Virus record (IMG/VR): IMGVR_UViG_3300028837_000875
Location: 1 to 64,000 of that record
DNA: 64,000 nt
Direction: 5' to 3' (one strand)
From: a virus
The notes beneath the pieces were generated by a model, which saw only the letters and a list, made by a program, of their open reading frames with translations, was not told the origin of the DNA and made no database searches. This document shows positions 3,185 through 64,000 of the stretch, one piece after another; the first letter of the stretch is position 1; the number at the start of each line of letters is the position of its first letter. Both the position numbers and the translations under genes were made by a program.

Positions 3185-3600
3185 CAGAGTTCAAATGCAA
3201 CAAATGTCATGGCACAAGTTTTTCTGTCTTGGCAAATCAAGGAGAAATGATTTGCAGGGGTTGTGGAAAGCATTTTGATATTTTCGTAACTCAACTTAAG
3301 ATGCCAGCTGTGACAAAAAAAGAGATACGAGAAAGGCTGGCTGCACTTGAGCACGAACAATGGATACACTGGACTAAGTACATGATAGAAAACTTGACTA
3401 CTGAAAATATTCTTTTGTGGCGTAAAGAGATTGAAGCTGTATACGAAGAATTATCAGAGAAACAAAAAGATTCTGATAGAGAATGGGCAGATAAAGTATT
3501 ATCTATAATTGCTCAATATGTAATTGAACCTGGAGGTGCTGAATGTCATTTGCCAAAGCGCAAGAGCGAAAGCAAAAGCAGATTCAAGCGGAGACGTTGA
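3181..3600 (+). CDS. Zn-ribbon + RyR-domain-like protein
   Basis: N-terminal CxxC..CxxC; LAALEHEQW...YEELSEKQKDSDR resembles RyR domain signature. Confidence 0.55.
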   Translation: MTEFKCNKCHGTSFSVLANQGEMICRGCGKHFDIFVTQLKMPAVTKKEIRERLAALEHEQWIHWTKYMIENLTTENILLWRKEIEAVYEELSEKQKDSDREWADKVLSIIAQYVIEPGGAECHLPKRKSESKSRFKRRR

Positions 3601-3872
3601 AGAGTCTTAAACAGCAAGTAGCAGATTTGAAAGATGAAATTAAAAAGAACAAAACTCCTCTTCGCTTGAAGGCAGAACAGCTCCAAGCAAGAATATTAGA
3701 ACTTGAGAAAGAGAAGCTACACGTTGAATTAAAATTAGGTTCTGTACAGCGTGAGAATGCTGGACTCAAGAAAGAAGTAGAAAAGCAGTGCATGGGATTT
3801 GCAGATATTGAAAGAAAACGTGAAATGCTTAAGGAGAGTAAGGATGCAAGTGACAAACATTCAAGCATCTAA
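3543..3872 (+). CDS. hypothetical coiled-coil protein
   Basis: GGAGGT RBS before ATG 3543. Confidence 0.6.
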   Translation: MSFAKAQERKQKQIQAETLKSLKQQVADLKDEIKKNKTPLRLKAEQLQARILELEKEKLHVELKLGSVQRENAGLKKEVEKQCMGFADIERKREMLKESKDASDKHSSI

Positions 3873-4551
3873 TCTGAGTGATATTTGGTTCAAGCTACTT
3901 GATAAAGTAGTTGATAGCGGAAGAGTCTACGAAGTTGGAGATGGACCATACGCAGGAAAGAAAAGACTTGAACTTGAGTTTGCCGTACTCAATGTCCACT
4001 GTCCATGGCAAAAGCTTTGGCCTGACTTAGAGCCACCACTTTTTTCTATAGAAGATTTTGAAGAATATATTGATTGGCTTTTATCAGGAATGAAGAAAGA
4101 ATTCAAAAGCTATCGGCCAACAAAGGATTACGAGTTGCTGTTTGAATCTATTCCTGAATTCAGTGTAGTAAAAAATTTAGATATAGATTTTTCTCCAATT
4201 GGTTTGCTTATTGCCAAGTATAAACGCGATGGATTCAAAACAAATCGTGCTTGCATTGAGCTTGCAGACAAGTCGGATATTGCCAGGGCATTTCCTATTT
4301 GCATTAGATTGATTGATACAAAGGTATTGTATAACAGACTCCATTTCTTTGTATACTTTCGCTCTTGGGATTTGTGGAATGAATTCTCTTTTGATTTAGC
4401 GGTCCTTGAGCGTATTAAGCTTTACGTAGCTGAGCGTATAGGTGTTGAAAGCGGAGAACTTGTGGCTTGTTCGAAGGGCATCCACTTATACGAAAAGAGT
4501 TGGAAGAAAGCCGAAGAGATAGTTGGACGAGAGATTCAATTCAAACTCTGA
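3844..4551 (+). CDS. thymidylate synthase-family paralog (possible dCMP methylase/hydroxymethylase)
   Basis: PICIRLIDT, LHFFVYFRSWDLW and KGIHLY motifs; colinear with 5281..5991; Asp at the specificity position. Confidence 0.75.
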   Translation: MQVTNIQASNLSDIWFKLLDKVVDSGRVYEVGDGPYAGKKRLELEFAVLNVHCPWQKLWPDLEPPLFSIEDFEEYIDWLLSGMKKEFKSYRPTKDYELLFESIPEFSVVKNLDIDFSPIGLLIAKYKRDGFKTNRACIELADKSDIARAFPICIRLIDTKVLYNRLHFFVYFRSWDLWNEFSFDLAVLERIKLYVAERIGVESGELVACSKGIHLYEKSWKKAEEIVGREIQFKL

Positions 4552-4588
4552 TAGATGGTATGCAAAGCAAGTTCAGGAGGAATTAGAA

Positions 4589-5284
4589 TTGAAATTATAT
4601 CATGGGACAAGTGCCAAGCGAGTTTGGCAAATTACAAAAAAGGGTATACGTCCAAGAAGTCTAACTGGTAAATCTAACTGGAATGAAGTTCCAGAATTCA
4701 AATCAAGAAACGATATGGTATATTTGACTTCTTGCTATCCGCTTTATTTTGCTGTGTGCTGTACAGAAGGAAATAGAATAGGTATAGTTGAAATAGATAC
4801 AGACAAACTTGATGTCAATAAGCTGTTTCCTGACGAAGATGTTATTGCTCAAATTCTTTCGGAGCAAACGGGTGTTTCGTTAAAAGAAACACACTCAAAA
4901 GTTAAAGCAAAACTCTTGTATATGCACGACCAGTGGGAAACTTCGCTGCAAGCCATGGGCACTTGTTGTTATCACGGACTCATTCTTCCTGAAGCATTGA
5001 CGCGCTATGCGTTGATTGACTTGAAAGGCAGAGGACAATTGATGCTCAGCATGTTAGACCCTGCCATTGCTATTCGCAATTATCAAATTAAAGGAGAGTA
5101 TTATAAAGCTTTTGTTGCTTGGGTTTTTGGAGATAGAGAAATTCTGCCTCAGTATGAAGAAACGAAAATGTTTATTGATGCAGGTATTCCAGGATTGGAA
5201 AGGCAATTCAAGTTCTGGGAAGAACAGCAGTCAAATCGTAATGGAATTGTTGTCGTTGAACTCTCGAAAGGAAAGAAGAAATGA
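4589..5284 (+). CDS. ADP-ribosyltransferase-fold (PARP/Tpt1-like) protein
   Basis: LYHGTS...I...GI.P and VYLT....YFA motifs; TTG start after CAGGAGG. Confidence 0.6.
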   Translation: MKLYHGTSAKRVWQITKKGIRPRSLTGKSNWNEVPEFKSRNDMVYLTSCYPLYFAVCCTEGNRIGIVEIDTDKLDVNKLFPDEDVIAQILSEQTGVSLKETHSKVKAKLLYMHDQWETSLQAMGTCCYHGLILPEALTRYALIDLKGRGQLMLSMLDPAIAIRNYQIKGEYYKAFVAWVFGDREILPQYEETKMFIDAGIPGLERQFKFWEEQQSNRNGIVVVELSKGKKK

Positions 5285-5991
5285 AAGTTGTTTCAATCAA
5301 TGCATTCGATTTAGATGACCTTTGGTTTAAGCTGCTTTGCGCTGTCATTGATTTTGGCCACATCTATACAATCACAAGAGGTTCATATGAAGGCCAGAAG
5401 CGACTTGAGTTTGATATGGTATACTTGCAAGTTGAAAAGCCAAGTAGTCAGATTATTCCTATTATTCCAGAAGGTATGAACATTCCGCCGCCGACTGATA
5501 TGGCATACGTAGAAAGATATATGAGTTATATTTTAAGTGGAAAGGAAGTAGAAGGTGAAGATTATACTTATGGAGAACGTTTGACAGAAGCGACTGAAGG
5601 TTCGGATGAAACGTTGAATCAAATACTTGAAGTAATTAGAATGTATAAAGAAGATGGTTTTGGTACAAATCAGGCGTGCATGGAAGTTGCTATGCCTTGG
5701 GATTTAATGATGGAATCTCCTCCTTGTTTGCGCTTGATTGATACTCGAATCAGATATGGCAAACTTCACTTCTTTGTATATTTTCGTTCTTGGGATTTGT
5801 GGGGAGGCCTGCCACCCAATCTTGCTGGCATTCAAAAGCTCAAGGAATTTATGGCCGAAGAAATTGGAGTAGAGGATGGCCAACTCTTTGCAGCATCAAA
5901 AGGATTGCATCTCTATGATTATAATTGGCCTCATGCTGAGCTAAGAACTGGAAAGAAGATTTCACTTGAAGGTAGGACAGAGGTTTCGTGA
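5281..5991 (+). CDS. thyA: thymidylate synthase (ThyA family)
   Basis: YTYGERL, PPCLR (catalytic Cys), FRSWDLWGGLPPN, GLHLY. Confidence 0.85.
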   Translation: MKVVSINAFDLDDLWFKLLCAVIDFGHIYTITRGSYEGQKRLEFDMVYLQVEKPSSQIIPIIPEGMNIPPPTDMAYVERYMSYILSGKEVEGEDYTYGERLTEATEGSDETLNQILEVIRMYKEDGFGTNQACMEVAMPWDLMMESPPCLRLIDTRIRYGKLHFFVYFRSWDLWGGLPPNLAGIQKLKEFMAEEIGVEDGQLFAASKGLHLYDYNWPHAELRTGKKISLEGRTEVS

Positions 5992-6548
5992 TAGAAGCAA
6001 TCAAAACAAAAGAGCAAAGCGTAGAGCTTTTCAGAGCAGGCTACTTTGGCAATCGTGTGCGACAATGGAATACTCTCGAAGAGTTGGATGCGGACCCCTT
6101 TGATGGCTTAGTTGTATTACGGCAAAGAAGCCGCCCTGCTGGCGGTAGAGGCATAACTATCTATGATATTGAGAAGAAACACGCATCAAAGGTCCTAAGC
6201 TCTCAGGCGTGTATAGGACAGCCTATCAGTTCTTTCTATTTCAATGAAGCAATCATTCCATCTGACGTTTTATTTCAAGGCGAGATTTGCAGAACAATCA
6301 AAGGTTTGTACTTGCTTTATTCTACACTTCCAATGCACATGCACGATGCTTTGCTGAAAGAGCCAAAGCACGCCTTTGGATTGAAAGCCAGGTTGTTGAT
6401 GGAGTACTTCCTCGATTCTTCTGGCTTGATTTGTATTTATGAATTTCTTGAGCGATTTGATGACCATGTAGTGGAGTTTACTTGTTGCTCAAAATCGTTT
6501 GGTGATTTGGGCTGGAGAACTATCATTTGGGAATGTAGAGGATTTTGA
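5988..6548 (+). CDS. hypothetical phage protein
   Basis: 186 aa; C-terminal VVEF...IIWECR. Confidence 0.65.
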   Translation: MIEAIKTKEQSVELFRAGYFGNRVRQWNTLEELDADPFDGLVVLRQRSRPAGGRGITIYDIEKKHASKVLSSQACIGQPISSFYFNEAIIPSDVLFQGEICRTIKGLYLLYSTLPMHMHDALLKEPKHAFGLKARLLMEYFLDSSGLICIYEFLERFDDHVVEFTCCSKSFGDLGWRTIIWECRGF

Positions 6549-6549
6549 A

Positions 6550-6783
6550 ATGTTAAAAATCAAAACGCTGAAAAAGAAATTGAAGCCAAAGACGCTCAAG
6601 ATAAAAGAGCTAAAGAAGAAAGAATTGAAAGTCAAGCAGATTGCTGGCACTAAAATATATGCTGGTAAGGGACTCAAAATAATATCTTGCTCAGATTGTG
6701 GCAAAAACATGGAAGTAGGAAGAGAAGCAAAAGCTGGACGTTGCAAAACATGTACTCAGAAAATGCTTTCAGGAGAAGGCTAA
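6550..6783 (+). CDS. Lys-rich Zn-finger protein
   Basis: K-rich N-terminus, CSDC...CKTC. Confidence 0.6.
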   Translation: MLKIKTLKKKLKPKTLKIKELKKKELKVKQIAGTKIYAGKGLKIISCSDCGKNMEVGREAKAGRCKTCTQKMLSGEG

Positions 6784-7007
6784 TGAATGAAAAACTGGAG
6801 TTGCAGATAGCAAAAGGTAAGAGAGTCCTCAAAGATATGAAGGACTCTCTTGAGTTTCTTAAACATCCAGCTCAACTATTAGATGTAGTAGAAGAGCTTG
6901 ACGTTGTGAGAGCTTTTCTAACTTCAACTATTTCTGGTATGGAATTCTGGGTTCAAATGAAAATAGATGAATGGGAGGCTAAGACAGATGAAAAGTGGAG
7001 TGAATGA
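6783..7007 (+). CDS. hypothetical protein
   Basis: TAATG coupling, AGGAGA RBS. Confidence 0.6.
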   Translation: MNEKLELQIAKGKRVLKDMKDSLEFLKHPAQLLDVVEELDVVRAFLTSTISGMEFWVQMKIDEWEAKTDEKWSE

Positions 7008-7518
7008 TATAACGTCAGAAAACTATGTTGAGAATGTTGTTAGAAGTGAGTCAGTTGATTTCCCGAAAATCAGAGAAAGACTGAAAGAGAAAAGACTTAT
7101 TCGATTGCTTCATTGTGCCATGGGACTCTGCACAGAAGCTGGTGAGTTCATGGACCATTTGAAGAAACATATTTTTTATGGAGCAGAATTAGACCCAGTA
7201 AACATGATAGAAGAACTGGGCGACAATCAATGGTATGTTGGTGTTGGCGTTGATGAACTTGAAGCTAAGTTCAATGAAATGTTGCAAAAGAATATTGATA
7301 AGCTTCGAGCAAGGTATCCTGAAAAGTTCGAGCCAGAGCAAGCAATCAATCGTGACTTAAAAAAAGAAAGAAGCATTCTTGAAAAGAGCAAATCAAAGAA
7401 AGGAATTCCATGTCCAGCTTGCGGCTCTCTGATAGCTGAGGATGCTGCTCAATGTTGGAAGTGCAAGATTGAATTTACGGAGGATAATAAAGATGAATCA
7501 GGTAGAGACAAAAACTAA
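6988..7518 (+). CDS. MazG-like nucleotide pyrophosphohydrolase with C-terminal Zn ribbon
   Basis: GLCTEAGEFMDHLKK...EELGD..WY and NIDKLRARYP motifs; CPAC..CWKC. Confidence 0.85.
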   Translation: MKSGVNDITSENYVENVVRSESVDFPKIRERLKEKRLIRLLHCAMGLCTEAGEFMDHLKKHIFYGAELDPVNMIEELGDNQWYVGVGVDELEAKFNEMLQKNIDKLRARYPEKFEPEQAINRDLKKERSILEKSKSKKGIPCPACGSLIAEDAAQCWKCKIEFTEDNKDESGRDKN

Positions 7519-56450: not shown

Positions 56451-57758
56451 TTGATGAAGGACAATCTGGTTATCGGTGGAGGCATATCAGGCCTCATTTT
56501 TTGCTATTACAATCCTGAGTTTTATTTGATTACAGATTCTCTTGGAGGCTTGCTCAAACAAGAGGGTAAATTTGGAGTAATGACTTTATGGGATACTCCA
56601 GAAACTCGAAAGCTCTTAAAAGATTTAGATATTGAAGTCAAGCCGTACAAGGCAGAGATTAGATATTTCTTCAATGGTAAAATTTATGAAGTGGCTCCTG
56701 ACGTTTTGCGTCGTGAATACATTCAAAAAAAGATGGGGCAGCTTGCACACAAAATTGACTTTGCAGATTTGGCTTTGTCTACTGACGAGACGAATTATAT
56801 TCCTGCTCTCAAAGTTGACTTTGATGTGCTCATGGAAAAGTTGCTGCACGAAGTTGAGAGCCGAAAGAATTATATGATAGCTACAATTTCAGAAATTCGA
56901 GATGATTCAATTACTCTTTATGATATGAAGAGTCCTTCAAGAATAATGAAATATAAAACGCTTGTCTCTACTATCCCAGCATTTCTATTTTGGTTGATGT
57001 GGAAAGGACGAGAGTGCAGAGAAGTTTGTGTTCCAGGAGAATTTGCTTTCAGTCCAACTACTACAGTTTCTATGAAAGCTCCTCATAAAAATTTGATTTC
57101 ACTCTTTGATGAAATGAACGGAATGATTCCAGCGTATATCTATTATCTTGATAACTCAAGATTTCATAGATTCTCGCACAGCTCTCAAGGCTGTTACGCT
57201 TTTCAGTTTGCAGGAGAGATTTCAAAGGAAGAGATTGCAATATATCTTGAAGTAGATGAATCTGATTTAGAATATCGAGTCGAGAAGATAGGGCAGTTCG
57301 TTACGCACAAGGGTAACATTCCTCCACGCAATATTATGTTTCTTGGAAGGCATGCGCAATGGGATTATAAAGTTAAGGTCCAGGACATTGTGCGTGTCTC
57401 TCGATTCTCTAAGTTCATGCTTGCTGATATGAGGAGCAGGCAATCAAGATTCAATAAGAACTTTATGGACTTCAATTCGCTGAGCTTTGAAGATAGACAG
57501 CGATTGACTGAGAAGTGGATTCTGTATGTGCAGGCAGAGTTGACCGAACTCTTGGACGAAACAAACTGGAAGTTGCATCGGCCTGGAAAGGAGATTGAAA
57601 AGAGCAAGATATTAAATGAGTGGATTGATTCTTTGAAGTTTTTATTAGGTATTGCAGATATTTGGGGCTTTGACAATGCGGAGATATTCAAGGCGTTCCA
57701 CGATAAGAGCGACTTTGTTGAGAAACGTTTTCAGGAGGAAGAGAAGAATGGGAAATGA
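56451..57758 (+). CDS. FAD-dependent oxidoreductase fused to dimeric dUTPase/MazG-like domain
   Basis: IGGGISG, LVSTIP, FLGRHAQWDY; C-terminal ELTELLDETNWK.H..EWID.LKF. Confidence 0.75.
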   Translation: MMKDNLVIGGGISGLIFCYYNPEFYLITDSLGGLLKQEGKFGVMTLWDTPETRKLLKDLDIEVKPYKAEIRYFFNGKIYEVAPDVLRREYIQKKMGQLAHKIDFADLALSTDETNYIPALKVDFDVLMEKLLHEVESRKNYMIATISEIRDDSITLYDMKSPSRIMKYKTLVSTIPAFLFWLMWKGRECREVCVPGEFAFSPTTTVSMKAPHKNLISLFDEMNGMIPAYIYYLDNSRFHRFSHSSQGCYAFQFAGEISKEEIAIYLEVDESDLEYRVEKIGQFVTHKGNIPPRNIMFLGRHAQWDYKVKVQDIVRVSRFSKFMLADMRSRQSRFNKNFMDFNSLSFEDRQRLTEKWILYVQAELTELLDETNWKLHRPGKEIEKSKILNEWIDSLKFLLGIADIWGFDNAEIFKAFHDKSDFVEKRFQEEEKNGK

Positions 57759-58683
57759 GTTTGAGTCAATCACAGAGTTCCATGGCAAGAAAATGTTGAA
57801 TGCATTTCATAAAGGAGAGAAGCCGAAAACAGATTTCAAAGATTCTTCGGATTCTGTTAGAGTTGCTTTGCTTAATTATTCTCCAAGTGTATACGAGGAC
57901 ATGTTCTGGTTCATCATGGGCTCGTATGGAAACGAAGCCAACAAGAGAAAGCAGTTCACTCCTTCAGAGGAAGATATTGAAAAGGTTATTGAAGCTTGCT
58001 TGAATCGTGAAGCAATGCCGTTAGCTCTTGAAATTCCGAAGTTTACTTTCGTAATATGGGGCATTGATAGAATCATCACTCACCAGATAGTCAGAAACAG
58101 AATTGGTGTTGTGTATTCTCAACACTGTACGGGAGACAATGACATACGTCATGTAGATTTTCTCCTGCCACATCGAATGATAGGAGCAAACACAGAGGAC
58201 GAAGTAGATTTCAGGATGCGAGTGAAGGAATGGCATAGAGTTGGCAAGGCACTCTACGCAGAAGGCATTGACGTCCATGGATATTCCATGCAGGACATGA
58301 GGCACATGATGCCGCAGGACGTGGATACGTACGTAATGATGAGTTGTAATTACATGATGCTTCAGAACTTTGTCGGCCGGCGTCTCTGCTCAAATGAGAC
58401 GATGCAGATTCAGCGAGTAGCAGAATTGATTAAAGAGGAAGTGACAAAGGTCTATCCGTTTCTTGGTCGTCATCTAATGAGCAATTGCGATAGAGCAAAG
58501 AGATGTCACTTCAAGAAGAATGGAACAATCTTTGGAGGTTCTGTTTATTATCCTTGCGGCAAGTATCCATGGAGCAGCAAAGAAGCTCCTGACCCGGAGG
58601 CATTCATTCACCCTATGACTTCAGAAGAAATCAGACAGGTAGAGAATCCGGCTTACAGACATTTAGAATCTGAGCAGGATTAG
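57748..58683 (+). CDS. divergent ThyX-like flavin-dependent enzyme
   Basis: FTFVIWGIDRIITHQIVRNRIG..YSQ, QDMRHMMP, FVGRRLC. Confidence 0.75.
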   Translation: MGNEFESITEFHGKKMLNAFHKGEKPKTDFKDSSDSVRVALLNYSPSVYEDMFWFIMGSYGNEANKRKQFTPSEEDIEKVIEACLNREAMPLALEIPKFTFVIWGIDRIITHQIVRNRIGVVYSQHCTGDNDIRHVDFLLPHRMIGANTEDEVDFRMRVKEWHRVGKALYAEGIDVHGYSMQDMRHMMPQDVDTYVMMSCNYMMLQNFVGRRLCSNETMQIQRVAELIKEEVTKVYPFLGRHLMSNCDRAKRCHFKKNGTIFGGSVYYPCGKYPWSSKEAPDPEAFIHPMTSEEIRQVENPAYRHLESEQD

Positions 58684-58825
58684 CTCTATCAGAATCAGAG
58701 CCTCAAATAGGGCAAGAAGCGTCCTAGGACCCTGTCTGAGGCCATTGAATAGATTATCTTAGGTATGATATAGCTGAGGCATATAGTTCTGAAGGACAGC
58801 GTATTATCAAAAGGCTCTGATAGAG
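58684..58825. repeat. intergenic element with terminal inverted repeats
   Basis: CTCTATCAGA..TCAGAGCCT / AGGCTCTGATAGAG; GTCCTAGGAC palindrome. Confidence 0.55.
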
Positions 58826-58835
58826 GATTCAATCC

Positions 58836-59375
58836 ATGATAATTTCAGTAGAAGGACCTGACGGATGTGGAAAGACAAGCTTTGCAAAAGAGCTTGAAAA
58901 GAAAACAGGCTTGCCAATAATCGAGTACAACTTTCAGATTGTTGGAGGCAATAGAAAAGAAGAACTTGCATATATTCAAATGCTTTCGTTTGTTGCCATC
59001 TCTTTTCATTTTAATTTCATCCGTGATAGGCATCTAATGTCTAATATGGTTTATGCATCTATATTTTCTGATGATTGTTATTGGCGTAAATATCTTGAGC
59101 TAATAGAAAGGACTCAAATACTCATTGCATATATTCACGTTCCAGCAGAAGAATTGATTAAGAGAATCAAGCAGCGTGAAGCAAGTGATGGAATTAAAGA
59201 GCCTGAAGATATACTTCTAAACTTGTTGGTGGCACATGAAAGTTTTGAAACTGCTTATTTTGAAATCAAGAAAAGATTTCCAGAGAAGATAATCAAACTT
59301 GATGGCTTGCTGACAATTGAGGATATGGTCAGTGATTATTTCAAGAAAAGACTCCAGCAAGAAAGGCAAACATGA
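58836..59375 (+). CDS. deoxynucleoside monophosphate (thymidylate-type) kinase
   Basis: ISVEGPDGCGKTS, DRHLMSNMVY, RIKQR. Confidence 0.85.
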   Translation: MIISVEGPDGCGKTSFAKELEKKTGLPIIEYNFQIVGGNRKEELAYIQMLSFVAISFHFNFIRDRHLMSNMVYASIFSDDCYWRKYLELIERTQILIAYIHVPAEELIKRIKQREASDGIKEPEDILLNLLVAHESFETAYFEIKKRFPEKIIKLDGLLTIEDMVSDYFKKRLQQERQT

Positions 59376-60427
59376 AACCTTATACTGAAAAGAAATTCGA
59401 GAAAATCTTTCCTTGGTTTGAAGCAATCAATCTTGATTTGCTGAAGGCACCAGTTGCAGTAAGACTTTTGGTGACAGATAAGTGCGCTTGCAAATGTCAC
59501 ATGTGTACGCACTGGAAGATGAAAAAGTTTTACTCGCTCGATTATAAAACGTTCAGTTCAATTGTGCTTGCTTGTCAGAACAATGGAACTCAATCTATGT
59601 TTCTTTCAGGAGGAGATGTCTTTTCTTGGGAGTGCTGGGAAAGATTTTTGAAAGATGAAGAAATTACAATTGCTGCTCTGACTGTTACGCCATTGATAAT
59701 TCCAAAAAGCTTTGACAAAGATTTGCTCAAGAGACTCAAATGGCTACGAGTTTCTTTTGATGCAATCAAGAGTGAAACGTTCAAAAAAATCAGAGGCGTA
59801 AACGCGTTGTCATCTGTAAAGCATGACTTGTCTTATATCCTCGCTAACAAATTGGTAGAGGATATCGGCATGACAACTGTTTTGCAGAAGGATAATTTTT
59901 CAGAGATTATAGAGATGGGTGAATACTTCGTTAACTTGGGCATCAAGAGATGGATAGTTCAGCCAGTCAATTATAATCCAAGGCTCAGCTTAACTCCTGA
60001 AGCAATACAAATGCTTGGCTATCAGTTGAGCAAGAAGTTTGGTGAAGCCATACCAACAAACAATTTCGATGTCCTTCAAAGCGATTTCAGTCTTTGGAAT
60101 TCTACTCACAATCTGCCTTGCATAATTCCGCGCATGGAAGCATTCATTGATACAAGACTCAGGGTATGGCCTTGCTGCAATCTTGCTCAAGATGCGCACG
60201 GAGATGAAGAAAGAGCAGAGAGATTGAAAATGGGTACGTTTATACAAGGCGCAAGTGCCGGTGAATATTTCCTTGAGCTTTGGCGTGAACGTAGAAATCT
60301 GCTCGATAAATTTACTGACTTCAAAGACATTCATCCTTTATGCAAGCAGACATGTAAGTTCAAATACTTCTACTATAATCTTGGCTTTGATTGGTGCAGA
60401 AAAAACAGAGAAGCTATTTATATTTGA
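59372..60427 (+). CDS. radical SAM protein with SPASM/Twitch-like C-terminus
   Basis: CACKCHMC, LSGGD, VSFDA, PC..WPCC..CKQTC. Confidence 0.9.
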   Translation: MKPYTEKKFEKIFPWFEAINLDLLKAPVAVRLLVTDKCACKCHMCTHWKMKKFYSLDYKTFSSIVLACQNNGTQSMFLSGGDVFSWECWERFLKDEEITIAALTVTPLIIPKSFDKDLLKRLKWLRVSFDAIKSETFKKIRGVNALSSVKHDLSYILANKLVEDIGMTTVLQKDNFSEIIEMGEYFVNLGIKRWIVQPVNYNPRLSLTPEAIQMLGYQLSKKFGEAIPTNNFDVLQSDFSLWNSTHNLPCIIPRMEAFIDTRLRVWPCCNLAQDAHGDEERAERLKMGTFIQGASAGEYFLELWRERRNLLDKFTDFKDIHPLCKQTCKFKYFYYNLGFDWCRKNREAIYI

Positions 60428-60438
60428 TAGGATGTAAT

Positions 60439-61053
60439 GTGCCTCAAATTTCAGAAAGAATGCTGATTAGGAAACACCGATTTCATTTGGAGCGTTCTAT
60501 TCAAGAATGTTCAGAGTGCAGCATACATAGAAACGAAGAGAATATACAATCCAAATCTATGGGTAATGGCAATTGCTATGACCCTGATATTTTTTTCATA
60601 GGCTTAGCTCCTTCTCAGAATAGACGGCCGCTCAAGCAAGATAAGCATGGCAACAAAATTCCTCTAAGAACATTTGAGTATTTAGTAGGTGGAAGATTTA
60701 GAAGATTGCTCAAGAGCTTAGGACTATATGAGAGAAGCTATCTAACAAATCTACTCAAGTGCAGCACTCCTGATAATAGAAAACCAAAACACACAGAAAT
60801 AAAAAATTGCTCAGTATGGTTTCACAAGGAATTCAATATGCTATCTCCCAGAGCCATTGTCCCTTTGGGCAATGTTGCAAGACGTGCTCTCGAAAGAACG
60901 ATGCAAATGACAGATGACAACAGAGGATTTTTATTTGGCGTAGAGGTAATCGTCATCAATTGCTTTCATCCGAATTATTGTTATAGCTATGGTGGAATAA
61001 CTGAGGAACGTTATGCCGAGCTATTATTAAAAGTAGAGAAAGAGTTAGAGTGA
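60439..61053 (+). CDS. uracil-DNA glycosylase superfamily protein (family 4/5, Fe-S type)
   Basis: CSEC, IGLAP, YLTNLLKC..NRKP..EIKNC, LGNVA, HPNY. Confidence 0.85.
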   Translation: MPQISERMLIRKHRFHLERSIQECSECSIHRNEENIQSKSMGNGNCYDPDIFFIGLAPSQNRRPLKQDKHGNKIPLRTFEYLVGGRFRRLLKSLGLYERSYLTNLLKCSTPDNRKPKHTEIKNCSVWFHKEFNMLSPRAIVPLGNVARRALERTMQMTDDNRGFLFGVEVIVINCFHPNYCYSYGGITEERYAELLLKVEKELE

Positions 61054-64000
61054 AAAGATTTCCTAAAAAGTTAGACATGACCATTCCGGAATATGAAGAG
61101 GATAAACATCTGTATACACCCATTCATGTTCATTCTTCGTATTCTCTTTTTGATTCAGTCAGCACAATCATGGAGATTCCAGAAGTTGCCAAGAAGCTTG
61201 GAATGAAAGCTGTCTCTTTATCTGACCATGGAACAATGAGCGGTACGTTTTCTTTTGTCGAGCATTGCAAAAGTAGTGGAGTTAAACCAATTGTAGGCTG
61301 TGAGTTCTATGTCAATCCAAGAAGATTAAAAAAAGATAAAGATGCAAACAACCAACACTTGTGTTTGTTTGCAATGAACATGGAAGGATGGAAGAATCTA
61401 CTCAAGATAACTTATGACGCAGTTACTAATGGATTCTACTTCAGGCCAAGAACAGATTTGGATTTTATAGCTGAGCATTCGGAAGGACTCATTTGCACTA
61501 CTGCTTGCATGGCCTCGCCAATCATCAAGCCGTTTCTCGATGATAATAAAAAGCAAGCTCTAAACAACTTGAAAAAGTTGAAAGAAGTTTTTGGAGATAG
61601 GCTGTACATAGAATTTCAATTCAACGAATTGGATATTCAAAAAAAGATTGTAGACTGGCTTGAATTTATTACCAAACGCTTTGGTCTCAAATCTTTGTAT
61701 GGACTTGATTCTCATTACACGTATCCGAATGATGTGTATCTGCAAGATATTATAAAACTCAATAGAAGAAAGATGACTGTATATGATGCCAATTGGCAGG
61801 AGGCGATTTTTGATATACGTAGACTTTTTATTAAGCCGTTTCAAGTGGCTCTCGACGAACCTGAGGAACTGGGATTCAAAGTAACCAAACAACGAGTTCG
61901 GTCACTTTTAGAAACAACTAATGAGCTTGCAGGTAGAATTCATTTTGAGTTTGAATTAGGATTGCACGCACCTGTTTATGAGCATCGTGGCAAAGCGGTA
62001 GACCAAGCCAAGTTTTTGAAGCTTCAAATTCAACGCGGCTTCTTGAAGAAAATCAAACAAGGTATGATTCCAAAAGGACAAGAGGAAGCTTATAGAAAAA
62101 GAACATGGTATGAATATGAGCAGATACTTAAATGCGGTTATCCAAATTATTTCTTAATGATTTGGGATATGGTTCGCGTTGCTGTAAGGCGTGGAATACA
62201 AAAGGGCATAGGCAGAGGCAGTGCTTCTGGTTCGCTTGTGTCTTTTGTTCTTGATATAAGCGGAGTGGACCCCATCAAACATGGCTTGCTCTTCGAGAGA
62301 TTTCTTGACGTAGAAAGAAAAGACCCACCAGATATAGATTTAGACTGGGAATCAGAACGCAGAAATGAGATTGAAGATTATCTTGTCGAGAAGTATGGAA
62401 AAGAAAAAGTAGCTCATGTTGCAACGTTCAGTTATTGGGGAACAAAGTCTGCTCTCAGTGAAGTATTCAAAACGCTTGGAGAAGATGGAAGTCCTATCTT
62501 CGAGATGTCAAAATGGATTCGTTCTGATGAAAAAGACATTCGATATGCAAAGCATGTTGATGATGCTATTGAATGGCTGAGAAAATATTGTCCGAAAAAT
62601 GAAGTGATAGATTTAGTTGATAGACAAATGGAACTGGGCGTACCGCTTGCAAAGCGGCTGGTTGATAATGTGCGTCATGTAGGTTTGCACGCCGGAGGAA
62701 TTGTCGTCTCTCCTAAGCCGATATGGGAATACATTCCAGTGATTCAGCATAAAGGAAAAATTGTAACTGGTTTTCCTCAGAGTTCAGAAATACGAAGAGG
62801 AGAATGGGGAACGCTTGAGAAAATAGGATTGATAAAGATTGATAATCTTGGAGTCAATTCAGTCTCTACAATTAAAGCAACACTTCTCTTGATAAAAGAG
62901 AGGCATGACTTAGATTTGTTTGAGCATATATGGAAAGTTGAGTTAGATGATTCTGAGGTATATCGTTTTTATGCTGAGTGTTTTACGGAAGGTGTATTTC
63001 AAGTAGAGTCAGATAGCATAAACAATTTTATCAGAAGATTGAAGCCAAGCAATTTCAGTGACATCTGTGCTCTTATGGCTTTGTATAGACCAGGTAGTTT
63101 GCAATCAGGAGAATCAGAACGCTTTATAAAGCGCAAGGCTGGAAAAGAGAAGATTGAATATGTACATCCAAAGCTCAAGAAATATCTTGAGGATACGTAT
63201 GGGTGTTTTGTTTATCAAGAGCAGCTAATGTTTATCATGCAAGAGCTGGCTGGCTTTGGAAAAGGAGAAGTTCTACGCAAGATGAAACTTCTCAAGCAAG
63301 CATATGATGTCAACAATGTAGATGTGCTTGCAATGGTAAAGCGATTGAGAGAGGAATTGATAAGGCTTTCTAACTTTACAGAAAAGCAAGCAGATGAATT
63401 AACTGAAATGATGCGCAAGTGTTATGCGTATATCTTCAACAAATCTCACGCGACTTCTTATGCGTTCTTCTCATACCAAATGATGTGGCTTAAAGTACAT
63501 TATCCTATTGAGTTCTTTTGTGGATTGCTTTCTCGCACGGAGAATCAAATCACAGAATTGAAAGGTGGTGCAATCAAGTTAAAAATTAAGAAGTATATCT
63601 CCGCAGCAAAAAAGCTTGGCATCACAGTTCTTCCTCCAAAGTTTGGAGTATCTGGAAGTGAATTCAAAATTATAGATGACAGCACAATTGTTGCTGGTAC
63701 TCGCATCATAGTTGGCATCGGCAAATCAGCGGCAGAGCTTGACAAGACTGTGGATGATTCCTGCTTTGAGGATTTTGTCTGCAATGAAAATATACAGTGG
63801 CAGAAACTCAACAAAAGTAAAGTTGAGAAGCTAATAAAAATTGGCTACTTTGATGATTCAGTAAAGACAAGAAAGAGCATCACCAAAAAACAATTAGTAC
63901 ATGCATGGAAGCTTTACAACGAGAGAAAGAAAAAGAAATGTGAAAGAGATACGATAGTAGAAGCAATCAAAGAATCAGTCAAGATAGTTGAAGGAGAATA
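61050..64000 (+). CDS. dnaE: DNA polymerase III alpha subunit (3' end beyond window)
   Basis: GTG 61050; PHP HVHSSYSLFDS, SDHG; GRGSASGSLV, FERFL, PPDIDLD, FNKSHA; absent from ORF track, consistent with no stop inside the window. Confidence 0.92.
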   Translation, partial: MKRFPKKLDMTIPEYEEDKHLYTPIHVHSSYSLFDSVSTIMEIPEVAKKLGMKAVSLSDHGTMSGTFSFVEHCKSSGVKPIVGCEFYVNPRRLKKDKDANNQHLCLFAMNMEGWKNLLKITYDAVTNGFYFRPRTDLDFIAEHSEGLICTTACMASPIIKPFLDDNKKQALNNLKKLKEVFGDRLYIEFQFNELDIQKKIVDWLEFITKRFGLKSLYGLDSHYTYPNDVYLQDIIKLNRRKMTVYDANWQEAIFDIRRLFIKPFQVALDEPEELGFKVTKQRVRSLLETTNELAGRIHFEFELGLHAPVYEHRGKAVDQAKFLKLQIQRGFLKKIKQGMIPKGQEEAYRKRTWYEYEQILKCGYPNYFLMIWDMVRVAVRRGIQKGIGRGSASGSLVSFVLDISGVDPIKHGLLFERFLDVERKDPPDIDLDWESERRNEIEDYLVEKYGKEKVAHVATFSYWGTKSALSEVFKTLGEDGSPIFEMSKWIRSDEKDIRYAKHVDDAIEWLRKYCPKNEVIDLVDRQMELGVPLAKRLVDNVRHVGLHAGGIVVSPKPIWEYIPVIQHKGKIVTGFPQSSEIRRGEWGTLEKIGLIKIDNLGVNSVSTIKATLLLIKERHDLDLFEHIWKVELDDSEVYRFYAECFTEGVFQVESDSINNFIRRLKPSNFSDICALMALYRPGSLQSGESERFIKRKAGKEKIEYVHPKLKKYLEDTYGCFVYQEQLMFIMQELAGFGKGEVLRKMKLLKQAYDVNNVDVLAMVKRLREELIRLSNFTEKQADELTEMMRKCYAYIFNKSHATSYAFFSYQMMWLKVHYPIEFFCGLLSRTENQITELKGGAIKLKIKKYISAAKKLGITVLPPKFGVSGSEFKIIDDSTIVAGTRIIVGIGKSAAELDKTVDDSCFEDFVCNENIQWQKLNKSKVEKLIKIGYFDDSVKTRKSITKKQLVHAWKLYNERKKKKCERDTIVEAIKESVKIVEGE

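Follow-up and report, generated by a model that had tools for sequence, protein, structure and literature searches.

The locus described here raises the question of whether one of two thymidylate synthase-like (ThyA) paralogs encoded by the same uncultured marine-sediment phage has been turned from uracil to cytosine nucleotides. The two genes lie in a 64,000-nucleotide stretch of DNA (hereafter, the window) that comprises the first 64 kb of the 88,571-bp IMG/VR virus record IMGVR_UViG_3300028837_000875 (completeness estimate, 78%). They encode P0001, an Asp-type paralog of 235 amino acids (aa) at positions 3844–4551, and P0002, a canonical Asn-type thymidylate synthase of 236 aa at positions 5281–5991, both on the plus strand. 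Modifications of phage DNA bases defeat restriction and CRISPR defences and are a source of enzymes for epigenome sequencing, and replacement of Asn177 (Escherichia coli numbering, used throughout for ThyA positions) by Asp is the standard marker of cytosine-directed ThyA homologues.

Here, we describe the sequence, phylogenetic, structural and contextual evidence on the two proteins. The explanation we favour, which in our judgement has about an even chance of being correct, is that P0001 is a deoxycytidine monophosphate (dCMP) C5-modifying enzyme that makes 5-methyl- or 5-hydroxymethyl-dCMP, and that P0002 is an ordinary synthase acting on deoxyuridine monophosphate (dUMP). The phage would thus probably place chemically altered cytosine in its DNA, by a route separate from that of phage T4, although the modified base itself is something that we infer.

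Two ThyA paralogs that differ at the base-specificity residue

The initial annotation of this locus, produced by reading the sequence, had recognized two colinear ThyA paralogs in these positions. Both open reading frames (ORFs) are present, share 41% identity over 239 columns (BLASTP, E 4e-60), and match the PF00303 profile above its gathering score of 24.3 (31.4 bits for P0001 and 44 bits for P0002); an AAGGAG ribosome-binding site precedes the P0001 ATG at 3844. The motifs quoted in that annotation recur exactly, RSWDLWNEFSFD in P0001 and RSWDLWGGLPPN in P0002, and, as it had stated, both proteins keep the HLY motif and the Cys at the catalytic position (Cys149 in P0002; Cys153 in P0001, codon at 4300–4302, located by alignments and a codon check as the equivalent of Cys146). 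Its central claim, that P0001 has Asp at the Asn177 position, 11 residues past the Arg of the RSxD motif, held under four alignment methods with the ThyA proteins of Lactobacillus casei, Enterococcus faecalis and E. coli as references, as well as in a codon check. Asp184 of P0001 (4393–4395) and Asn180 of P0002 (5818–5820) both correspond to L. casei Asn229 and E. coli Asn177.

The remainder of the nucleotide-handling apparatus is retained in P0001, namely, Cys153, Arg41, Arg173, Ser174, Asp176, Lys211, His214 and Tyr216. The alignments set Arg173-Ser174-Trp175-Asp176 (4360–4371) on E. coli Arg166-Ser167-x-Asp169, so that Asp169, too, is kept. In the N-terminal half of the protein, the sequence alignments disagree and yield no confident equivalents of E. 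coli Glu58 and Arg21. The Asn177Asp change redirects ThyA to dCMP in mutants of two classical enzymes and goes with cytosine-modified phage contigs (PMC8670742; PMC13326640), and five of the seven Asp-type phage homologues that were tested made 5-methyl-dCMP (bioRxiv 10.1101/2024.12.05.627091).

Under the favoured explanation, P0001 would be an enzyme of the thymidylate synthase (TS) fold re-specified from dUMP to dCMP, in which Asp184 would pair with the N3/N4 face of cytosine, Cys153 would attack C6, and the one-carbon unit of methylene-tetrahydrofolate would be added at C5 to give 5-methyl- or 5-hydroxymethyl-dCMP. The modified dCMP would then be phosphorylated by the deoxynucleoside monophosphate (dNMP) kinase of the phage and a nucleoside diphosphate kinase of the host and incorporated by the phage DnaE polymerase; a predicted MazG-like pyrophosphatase encoded nearby may turn dCTP back to dCMP, and P0002 would serve as the phage's ordinary synthase of deoxythymidine monophosphate (dTMP) from dUMP.

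Of the two candidate products, the methylated one would be slightly favoured by the hydrophobic residue of P0001 at the Leu143 equivalent, where a hydrophobic residue has been associated with methylation and an acidic one with hydroxymethylation (PMC13326640), although this rule itself fails in the ThyA subfamily discussed below. The residue in question is most likely Phe150 (4291–4293), as aligned by phmmer and MAFFT; in this favoured alignment, P0002 has Ser146 and the canonical subfamily has Asp. The hhalign alternative, in which Leu143 falls on Arg148 of P0001, leaves some ambiguity in the assignment; we judged it to be an artefact caused by an insertion in the gp42-like reference sequences.

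Both paralogs belong to a short, methanogen-like ThyA family

P0001 and P0002 both align end to end with the methanogen-type NCBIfam model TIGR03283 (model positions 3–200 of 201), with scores of 62.7 and 96.8 bits, respectively, that do not reach its equivalog cut-off of 174.55; bacterial and phage members of the family also stay below it. This short form, of about 215–250 aa, is devoid of the C-terminal segment of classical ThyA and has members that are 38–41% identical to P0001. It is present in at least 209 IMG/VR loci and at least 555 bacterial genome loci, the latter mostly in metagenome-assembled genomes (MAGs) of Omnitrophota, Planctomycetota and Dehalococcoidia. Cultured phages, by comparison, have no close homologue of either protein: when 50,697 phage records were searched with P0001 by tblastn, none matched at E 1e-3, and P0002 gave just partial matches of 25–35% identity to classical phage synthases.

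In all five bacterial MAGs tested (from Omnitrophota, Planctomycetota and Desulfobacterales), the sole PF00303 match is accompanied by no ThyX, and in the four MAGs for which coordinates were compared (G001, G002, G003 and G005) that single match falls inside the short-form locus. Because these genomes have no other PF00303 match and no ThyX, we infer that the canonical short form is a genuine dTMP synthase. P0002, in which all the family motifs are present, can therefore supply the phage with dTMP, so that P0001 is available for a different function. The same bacterial enzymes show why the Leu143 rule was dropped as a predictor of methyl versus hydroxymethyl products in this family: sole, genuine bacterial synthases carry Asp at the 143 equivalent.

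The Asn177 position itself is under strong constraint for dUMP, given that Asn, together with YTYG, T/NNQ, DPPCLR and G-F/L-P-x-N, occurs in 80 of the 80 other phage loci and 80 of the 80 bacterial loci inspected, and is kept in 134 of 152 sequences (149 representative hits plus P0001, P0002 and the related protein P0005). P0001 departs from the near-invariant YTYG, TNQ, DPPCLR and GxPxN motifs of the short family, and its Asp is a rare, derived change. The constraint on position 177 bears on the possibility that dUMP is still the substrate of P0001, making it a second thymidylate synthase or a dUMP hydroxymethylase, or that P0001 acts on a ribonucleotide or polynucleotide, with Asp merely tolerated. 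The active site of the short family is indeed unlike that of classical ThyA, with Asn-Gln in place of Arg126/127, Asp at position 143 and no C-terminal segment, so that rules derived from the E. coli enzyme may fail here, the Leu143 rule being one that does; the phage also has a separate, thymine-directed ThyX cassette. Nevertheless, Asn is present in 160 of the 160 other members inspected, the deoxyribose-contact His and Tyr are retained in P0001, and two classical enzymes turn to dCMP when Asn177 is mutated to Asp (PMC8670742; PMC13326640), and we consider activity on dUMP or on a ribonucleotide or polynucleotide to be highly improbable.

Nine short ThyA proteins are enlarged to 544–682 aa. 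In six of them (P0046, P0055, P0060, P0065, P0068 and P0082), intein-like sequences interrupt the catalytic Cys motif (DPP|C...HN|CLR) or the Ser167 equivalent (YFR|C...HN|SWDLW), and in the other three (P0048, P0064 and P0071) the replacement of YTYG by YCYS suggests a third, putative insertion site. The location of inteins exactly at these motifs implies that the Cys and Ser167 motifs and, if the putative site is genuine, YTYG are functionally critical. Asp-type residues also occur elsewhere in the short family: P0108/P0188 (422 aa) is a separate Asp-type member (YTHG, TNQ, NPPC, GLPFD) that carries a fused thymidine-kinase-like, P-loop-containing domain, a combination that speaks for the favoured explanation. 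P0057 is a further Asp-type member, and P0160 has the Asp without the catalytic Cys.

P0001 belongs to a small clade with a conserved set of changes

A profile search of 1.84 billion representative sequences recovered only three lineages near P0001, namely, P0005, P0039 and P0040, which are 65%, 44% and 40% identical to it, respectively; scans of viral contigs and metagenome contigs found no Asp-clade loci. In a careful tree, P0001, P0005, P0039 and P0040 form one clade (support 100/99, stem 0.93) that is nested in the short family. The short family is separated from E. coli ThyA and the td protein of phage SP18 at 100/100; five classical references, including SPO1 gp29, the Acj9 gp42 homologue and a dCH-like phage ORF, are split from the short family at 99. 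The proposal in the initial annotation that P0001 originated separately from T4-type dCMP enzymes is thus borne out by the phylogeny.

P0002 falls elsewhere in the same tree, grouped at 100/99 with P0041 (73% identical) and a Planctomycetota MAG enzyme (L083 3001–3708; 67% identical) within a bacterial (Planctomycetota/Omnitrophota) clade. The two genes had initially been described as duplicated, and the paralogy stands (41% identity, E 4e-60); a recent duplication does not, given the different clades and the closeness of P0002 to bacterial enzymes (67–73%). Because they belong to different clades of one family, P0001 and P0002 appear to be old paralogs rather than a fresh tandem duplicate, and P0002 looks host-derived; recent tandem duplication was accordingly dropped as an explanation. 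The placement of the Asp clade within the family is not firm: when a clade of P0001, P0005 and P0002 was put to an approximately unbiased (AU) test on a quick tree, it was not rejected (p 0.76).

The members of the Asp clade share much more than the specificity residue. At position 177, the Asn of the canonical short family is replaced by an invariant Asp; Tyr94 is replaced by Lys or Phe, Gly95 by an invariant Asp, and the Gln of TNQ, at the position of Arg127, by Arg (TNR). At the Leu143 position, in the favoured alignment, the canonical Asp gives way to Phe, Phe, Leu and Pro; Gly173 becomes a charged residue, and Pro175 becomes Ser in P0001 and P0005. Across the clade, Cys153, Arg41, Arg173, Ser174, Lys211, His214 and Tyr216 are retained; Asp176 is retained in P0001, whereas P0039 reads RSWN...D, that is, Asp169Asn plus Asn177Asp. 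The family has 78 conserved columns; P0001 and P0005 both retain 48 of them and share an identical replacement at 17, and at only eight has just one of the two changed. Such a pattern argues for a functional shift followed by purifying selection rather than decay. As far as can be read from these alignments, the Asp-clade pattern thus indicates a conserved shift of function, and the earlier suggestion of neofunctionalisation appears to be sustained, against decay, by changes that are conserved in a four-member clade.

The rebuilt active site and the alternatives it raises

The AlphaFold2 models of P0001 and P0002 are confident (mean predicted local distance difference test score, pLDDT, 93.4 and 94.1, respectively), and that of P0001 has the TS fold, matching L. 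casei and E. coli ThyA with Z 18–19 (about 205 residues), MilA with Z 20 and AfhB with Z 22. The register of the models sets Lys94 of P0001 on Tyr97 of P0002, with the corresponding helix starting at K94 in the former and at Y97 in the latter. The top match of P0001 in the Protein Data Bank (PDB) is AfhB (Z 22.3, root-mean-square deviation 2.5 Å, 204 residues). AfhB was nonetheless not retained as a specific relative because the control model of P0002 matches it better (Z 24.1), and the likeness is probably a trait of the family.

Several points weigh against the favoured explanation. The first is the loss of YTYGERL and of a conserved Gly from P0001, which the initial annotation had already recorded and which is confirmed here: the Tyr94-Gly95 pair of YTYG is replaced by Lys94-Asp95 (4123–4128; clade alignment and models), and the Gly173 equivalent is Glu180. 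The canonical short family has the Tyr94 equivalent, and so do E. coli ThyA, SP18 td, SPO1 gp29, RB69 gp48 and the Acj9 gp42 homologue; P0001 has Lys94 in its place, and P0039 and P0040 have Phe. Judging from these alignments, the loss of this Tyr is the chief argument against activity of P0001 or in favour of altered chemistry. Second, the cofactor-site loop (E. coli 172–176), canonically G-G-F/L-P-x, is rebuilt as Asn179-Glu180-Phe181-Ser182-Phe183 (4378–4392), with the Pro175 equivalent being Ser182. Given this loop (Gly173 to Glu, Pro175 to Ser) together with the missing Tyr94, folate use and catalytic competence of P0001 cannot be taken for granted; P0002, by comparison, has the Tyr94 equivalent and the whole Gly173/Pro175 loop. 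Third, the Leu143 rule, under which a methyl product would be slightly favoured, breaks down in this family. Fourth, neither a dCMP deaminase nor a glycosyltransferase nor a recognisable dCTPase was found.

ThyA is an obligate dimer, and the lost residues could accordingly mean that P0001 is catalytically impaired and has a regulatory or other non-catalytic role. It might form a heterodimer with P0002 through the conserved sheet interface and lend Arg135 to the active site of its partner, or might simply bind nucleotide. Besides the loss of the Tyr94 equivalent and the rebuilding of the Gly173/Pro175 loop, such a role would agree with the near-identity of the interface strands in P0001 and P0002, including the common stretch LHFFVYFRSWDLW, and with the close packing and co-transcription of the two genes. 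It would also agree with the change of TNQ to TNR, which puts Arg135 (4246–4248, from the alignments) at the position of E. coli Arg127, one of the phosphate-binding pair that in ThyA reaches the site of the partner subunit. However, the clade has preserved Cys153 and every nucleotide-contact residue despite identities of just 40–65% among its members, the specificity residue has become precisely the cytosine-pairing Asp and is invariant in the clade, and bacterial enzymes 67–73% identical to P0002 work without such a partner. An impaired partner subunit is, in our estimation, unlikely, albeit a serious contender.

The same rebuilt pocket could instead signal a change of chemistry, such that P0001 acts on a cytosine nucleotide with another cofactor, for example, by flavin-dependent C5 hydroxylation as in AfhB and RB69 gp48, or adds a different group. 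In favour of this, the loop along the cofactor site and the Tyr94 motif have both been remodelled, and Asp95 is a new invariant residue; the ThyA fold is known to have changed from folate to flavin in the AfhB/gp48 branch, and the clade member P0039 combines Asp169Asn with Asn177Asp, which is the signature of flavin-dependent 5-hydroxy-dCMP synthases (PMC13326640). P0001 itself keeps Asp176, the Asp169 equivalent, and so is without the signature; moreover, RB69 gp48 retains Tyr94, and the structural match to AfhB is unspecific, with P0001 at Z 22.3 and P0002 at Z 24.1. We regard such a departure from folate chemistry in P0001 as rather improbable.

Gene neighbourhood and genomic setting

The context fits a nucleotide-level pathway, with closely packed genes, a MazG-like enzyme, a dNMP kinase, a ribonucleotide reductase (RNR) and the phage's own DnaE. 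All genes are on the plus strand and include those for terminase, portal, DnaB, a helicase loader, primase and DnaE; past the window, the record encodes RecA, SbcCD, FEN, RuvC, a class II RNR with an intein, and two DNA methyltransferases. P0001, P0003, P0002 and P0004 are closely packed, with 4-nt stop/start overlaps at 5281 and 5988. P0003 (4523–5284), between the two ThyA genes, is a protein of the ADP-ribosyltransferase fold, as judged from its sequence, which contains an LYHGTS motif, and from matches to DarT/PARP-like viral clusters in the ESM Atlas (score 0.96, TM 0.63–0.74); its true start may be a TTG near 4595, after an AGGAGG. Upstream of P0003 lie a macrodomain-like gene and a DUF488-N3a gene (positions 2407–2928 and 1665–2057), and six other phage loci (L017, L025, L045–L047 and L049) also have a macro-like gene adjoining their short ThyA gene. 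P0004 (5988–6548), a 186-aa protein without assigned function whose GTG start overlaps the P0002 stop, has no match in Pfam, PHROG or NCBIfam, and the ESM Atlas yielded no usable match for it.

About 1 kb downstream of the ThyA genes is a gene for a MazG-like nucleoside triphosphate (NTP) pyrophosphatase (6967–7518; PF03819; phrog_229, E 8e-40), a candidate hydrolase of a canonical deoxynucleoside triphosphate. A second nucleotide cassette occupies 56451–61053, beside the DnaE-type DNA polymerase gene (61050–63998, running off the window end; PF07733, PF02811, PF17657), and encodes a fusion of a flavoprotein with a dimeric dUTPase, a divergent ThyX-like protein (57652–58683; PF02511, 74.7 bits; TIGR02170, 44.7 bits against a cut-off of 87.9), the dNMP kinase (58836–59375; PF02223/PF01712; phrog_761), which might phosphorylate a modified dNMP, a radical-SAM-like protein and a protein of the uracil-DNA glycosylase (UDG) family. 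Given this cassette, the phage may alter more than one base. A more far-reaching possibility, for which we see only a small chance, is that the Asp clade is an independent cytosine-directed lineage without Tyr94, perhaps using Asp95 as a base, with a rebuilt cofactor pocket and an undescribed modification or cofactor, such that the phage would modify cytosine via P0001 and thymine via the flavoprotein-ThyX cassette.

Different studies of marine sediments have yielded metagenomes (2016 and 2024; runs X1–X5) that contain fragments identical or near-identical to the phage over window positions 3500–6600, among them pieces of P0001. The P0001 gene is intact and identical in these fragments, which counts in favour of the favoured explanation; the pieces offer no variation from which to calculate a ratio of nonsynonymous to synonymous substitution rates (dN/dS). 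In the same metagenome runs, the conserved HFFVYFRSWDLW stretch of P0002 recruited contigs of many other organisms. The affinity of P0002 to Planctomycetota/Omnitrophota enzymes hints at the phage's host group or at a host-derived gene.

Comparison with known nucleotide-modifying systems

The pair P0001 and P0002 is reminiscent of T4 td and gene 42, likewise two ThyA-fold paralogs with Asn versus Asp at position 177. T4 adds the gp56 dCTPase and the gp1 dNMP kinase, and the phage described here similarly has an all-alpha NTP pyrophosphatase, a dNMP kinase and its own polymerase, although no glucosyltransferase was found in it. The predicted logic of modification at the mononucleotide level would be common to both phages but built independently here, inside the short ThyA family. 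With respect to T4-type dCMP hydroxymethylases, P0001 has the Asp at 177 (Asp184; Asp179 in T4) and the catalytic Cys (Cys153); in contrast, in place of the acidic residue at the Leu143 equivalent, it has Phe150 (phmmer, MAFFT) or Arg148 (hhalign). Common descent with T4 gp42-like enzymes is not seen, with the Acj9 gp42 homologue and the dCH-like ORF placed outside the short family (99) and P0001 about 15–17% identical to classical ThyA-fold enzymes. The Acj9 gp42 homologue and RB69 gp48 have a Tyr96 equivalent and an insertion before the catalytic Cys, and P0001 has neither.

P0001 resembles the Xp12-type dCMP methyltransferases and MetaGPA homologues in combining Asp at 177 with a hydrophobic 143 equivalent (in the favoured alignment), and cytosine-modified contigs typically have, as a neighbour, a MazG/PRA-PH-type gene such as the one nearby (bioRxiv 10.1101/2024.12.05.627091). 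This phage differs from the Xp12 type in being without a deaminase selective for 5-methylcytosine (5mC) and in keeping a separate Asn-type synthase. AfhB of phage HY126 (PDB 9iqu/9iqc) and RB69 gp48 share with P0001 the short ThyA-fold architecture and Asp at 177, but their Asp169Asn is absent from P0001 and present in P0039. Finally, the Asn at 177 of a dUMP-methylating synthase is found in P0002 and not in P0001.

The references themselves yielded some observations. The annotated td of Shigella phage SP18 (L166 498–1358) reads LPFDIG, that is, Asp at the Asn177 position. Acinetobacter phage Acj9 gp42 (L164 280–984), annotated as a dCMP hydroxymethylase, reads RSQN...D, the 5-hydroxy-dCMP synthase signature, as does RB69 gp48.

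Implications

Phage enzymes with the Asp switch are familiar; the case described here is an independently derived version in a different ThyA subfamily, on which Omnitrophota, Planctomycetota and Dehalococcoidia rely for their housekeeping synthase. A caution for annotation is that the Leu143 rule for methyl versus hydroxymethyl products is not transferable to this short subfamily. The switch is accompanied by the loss of a catalytic Tyr that is kept in all the characterised relatives aligned. If P0001 is active, cytosine specificity would have evolved at least two times in the ThyA fold, and the accepted proton-abstraction machinery would be dispensable or replaceable.

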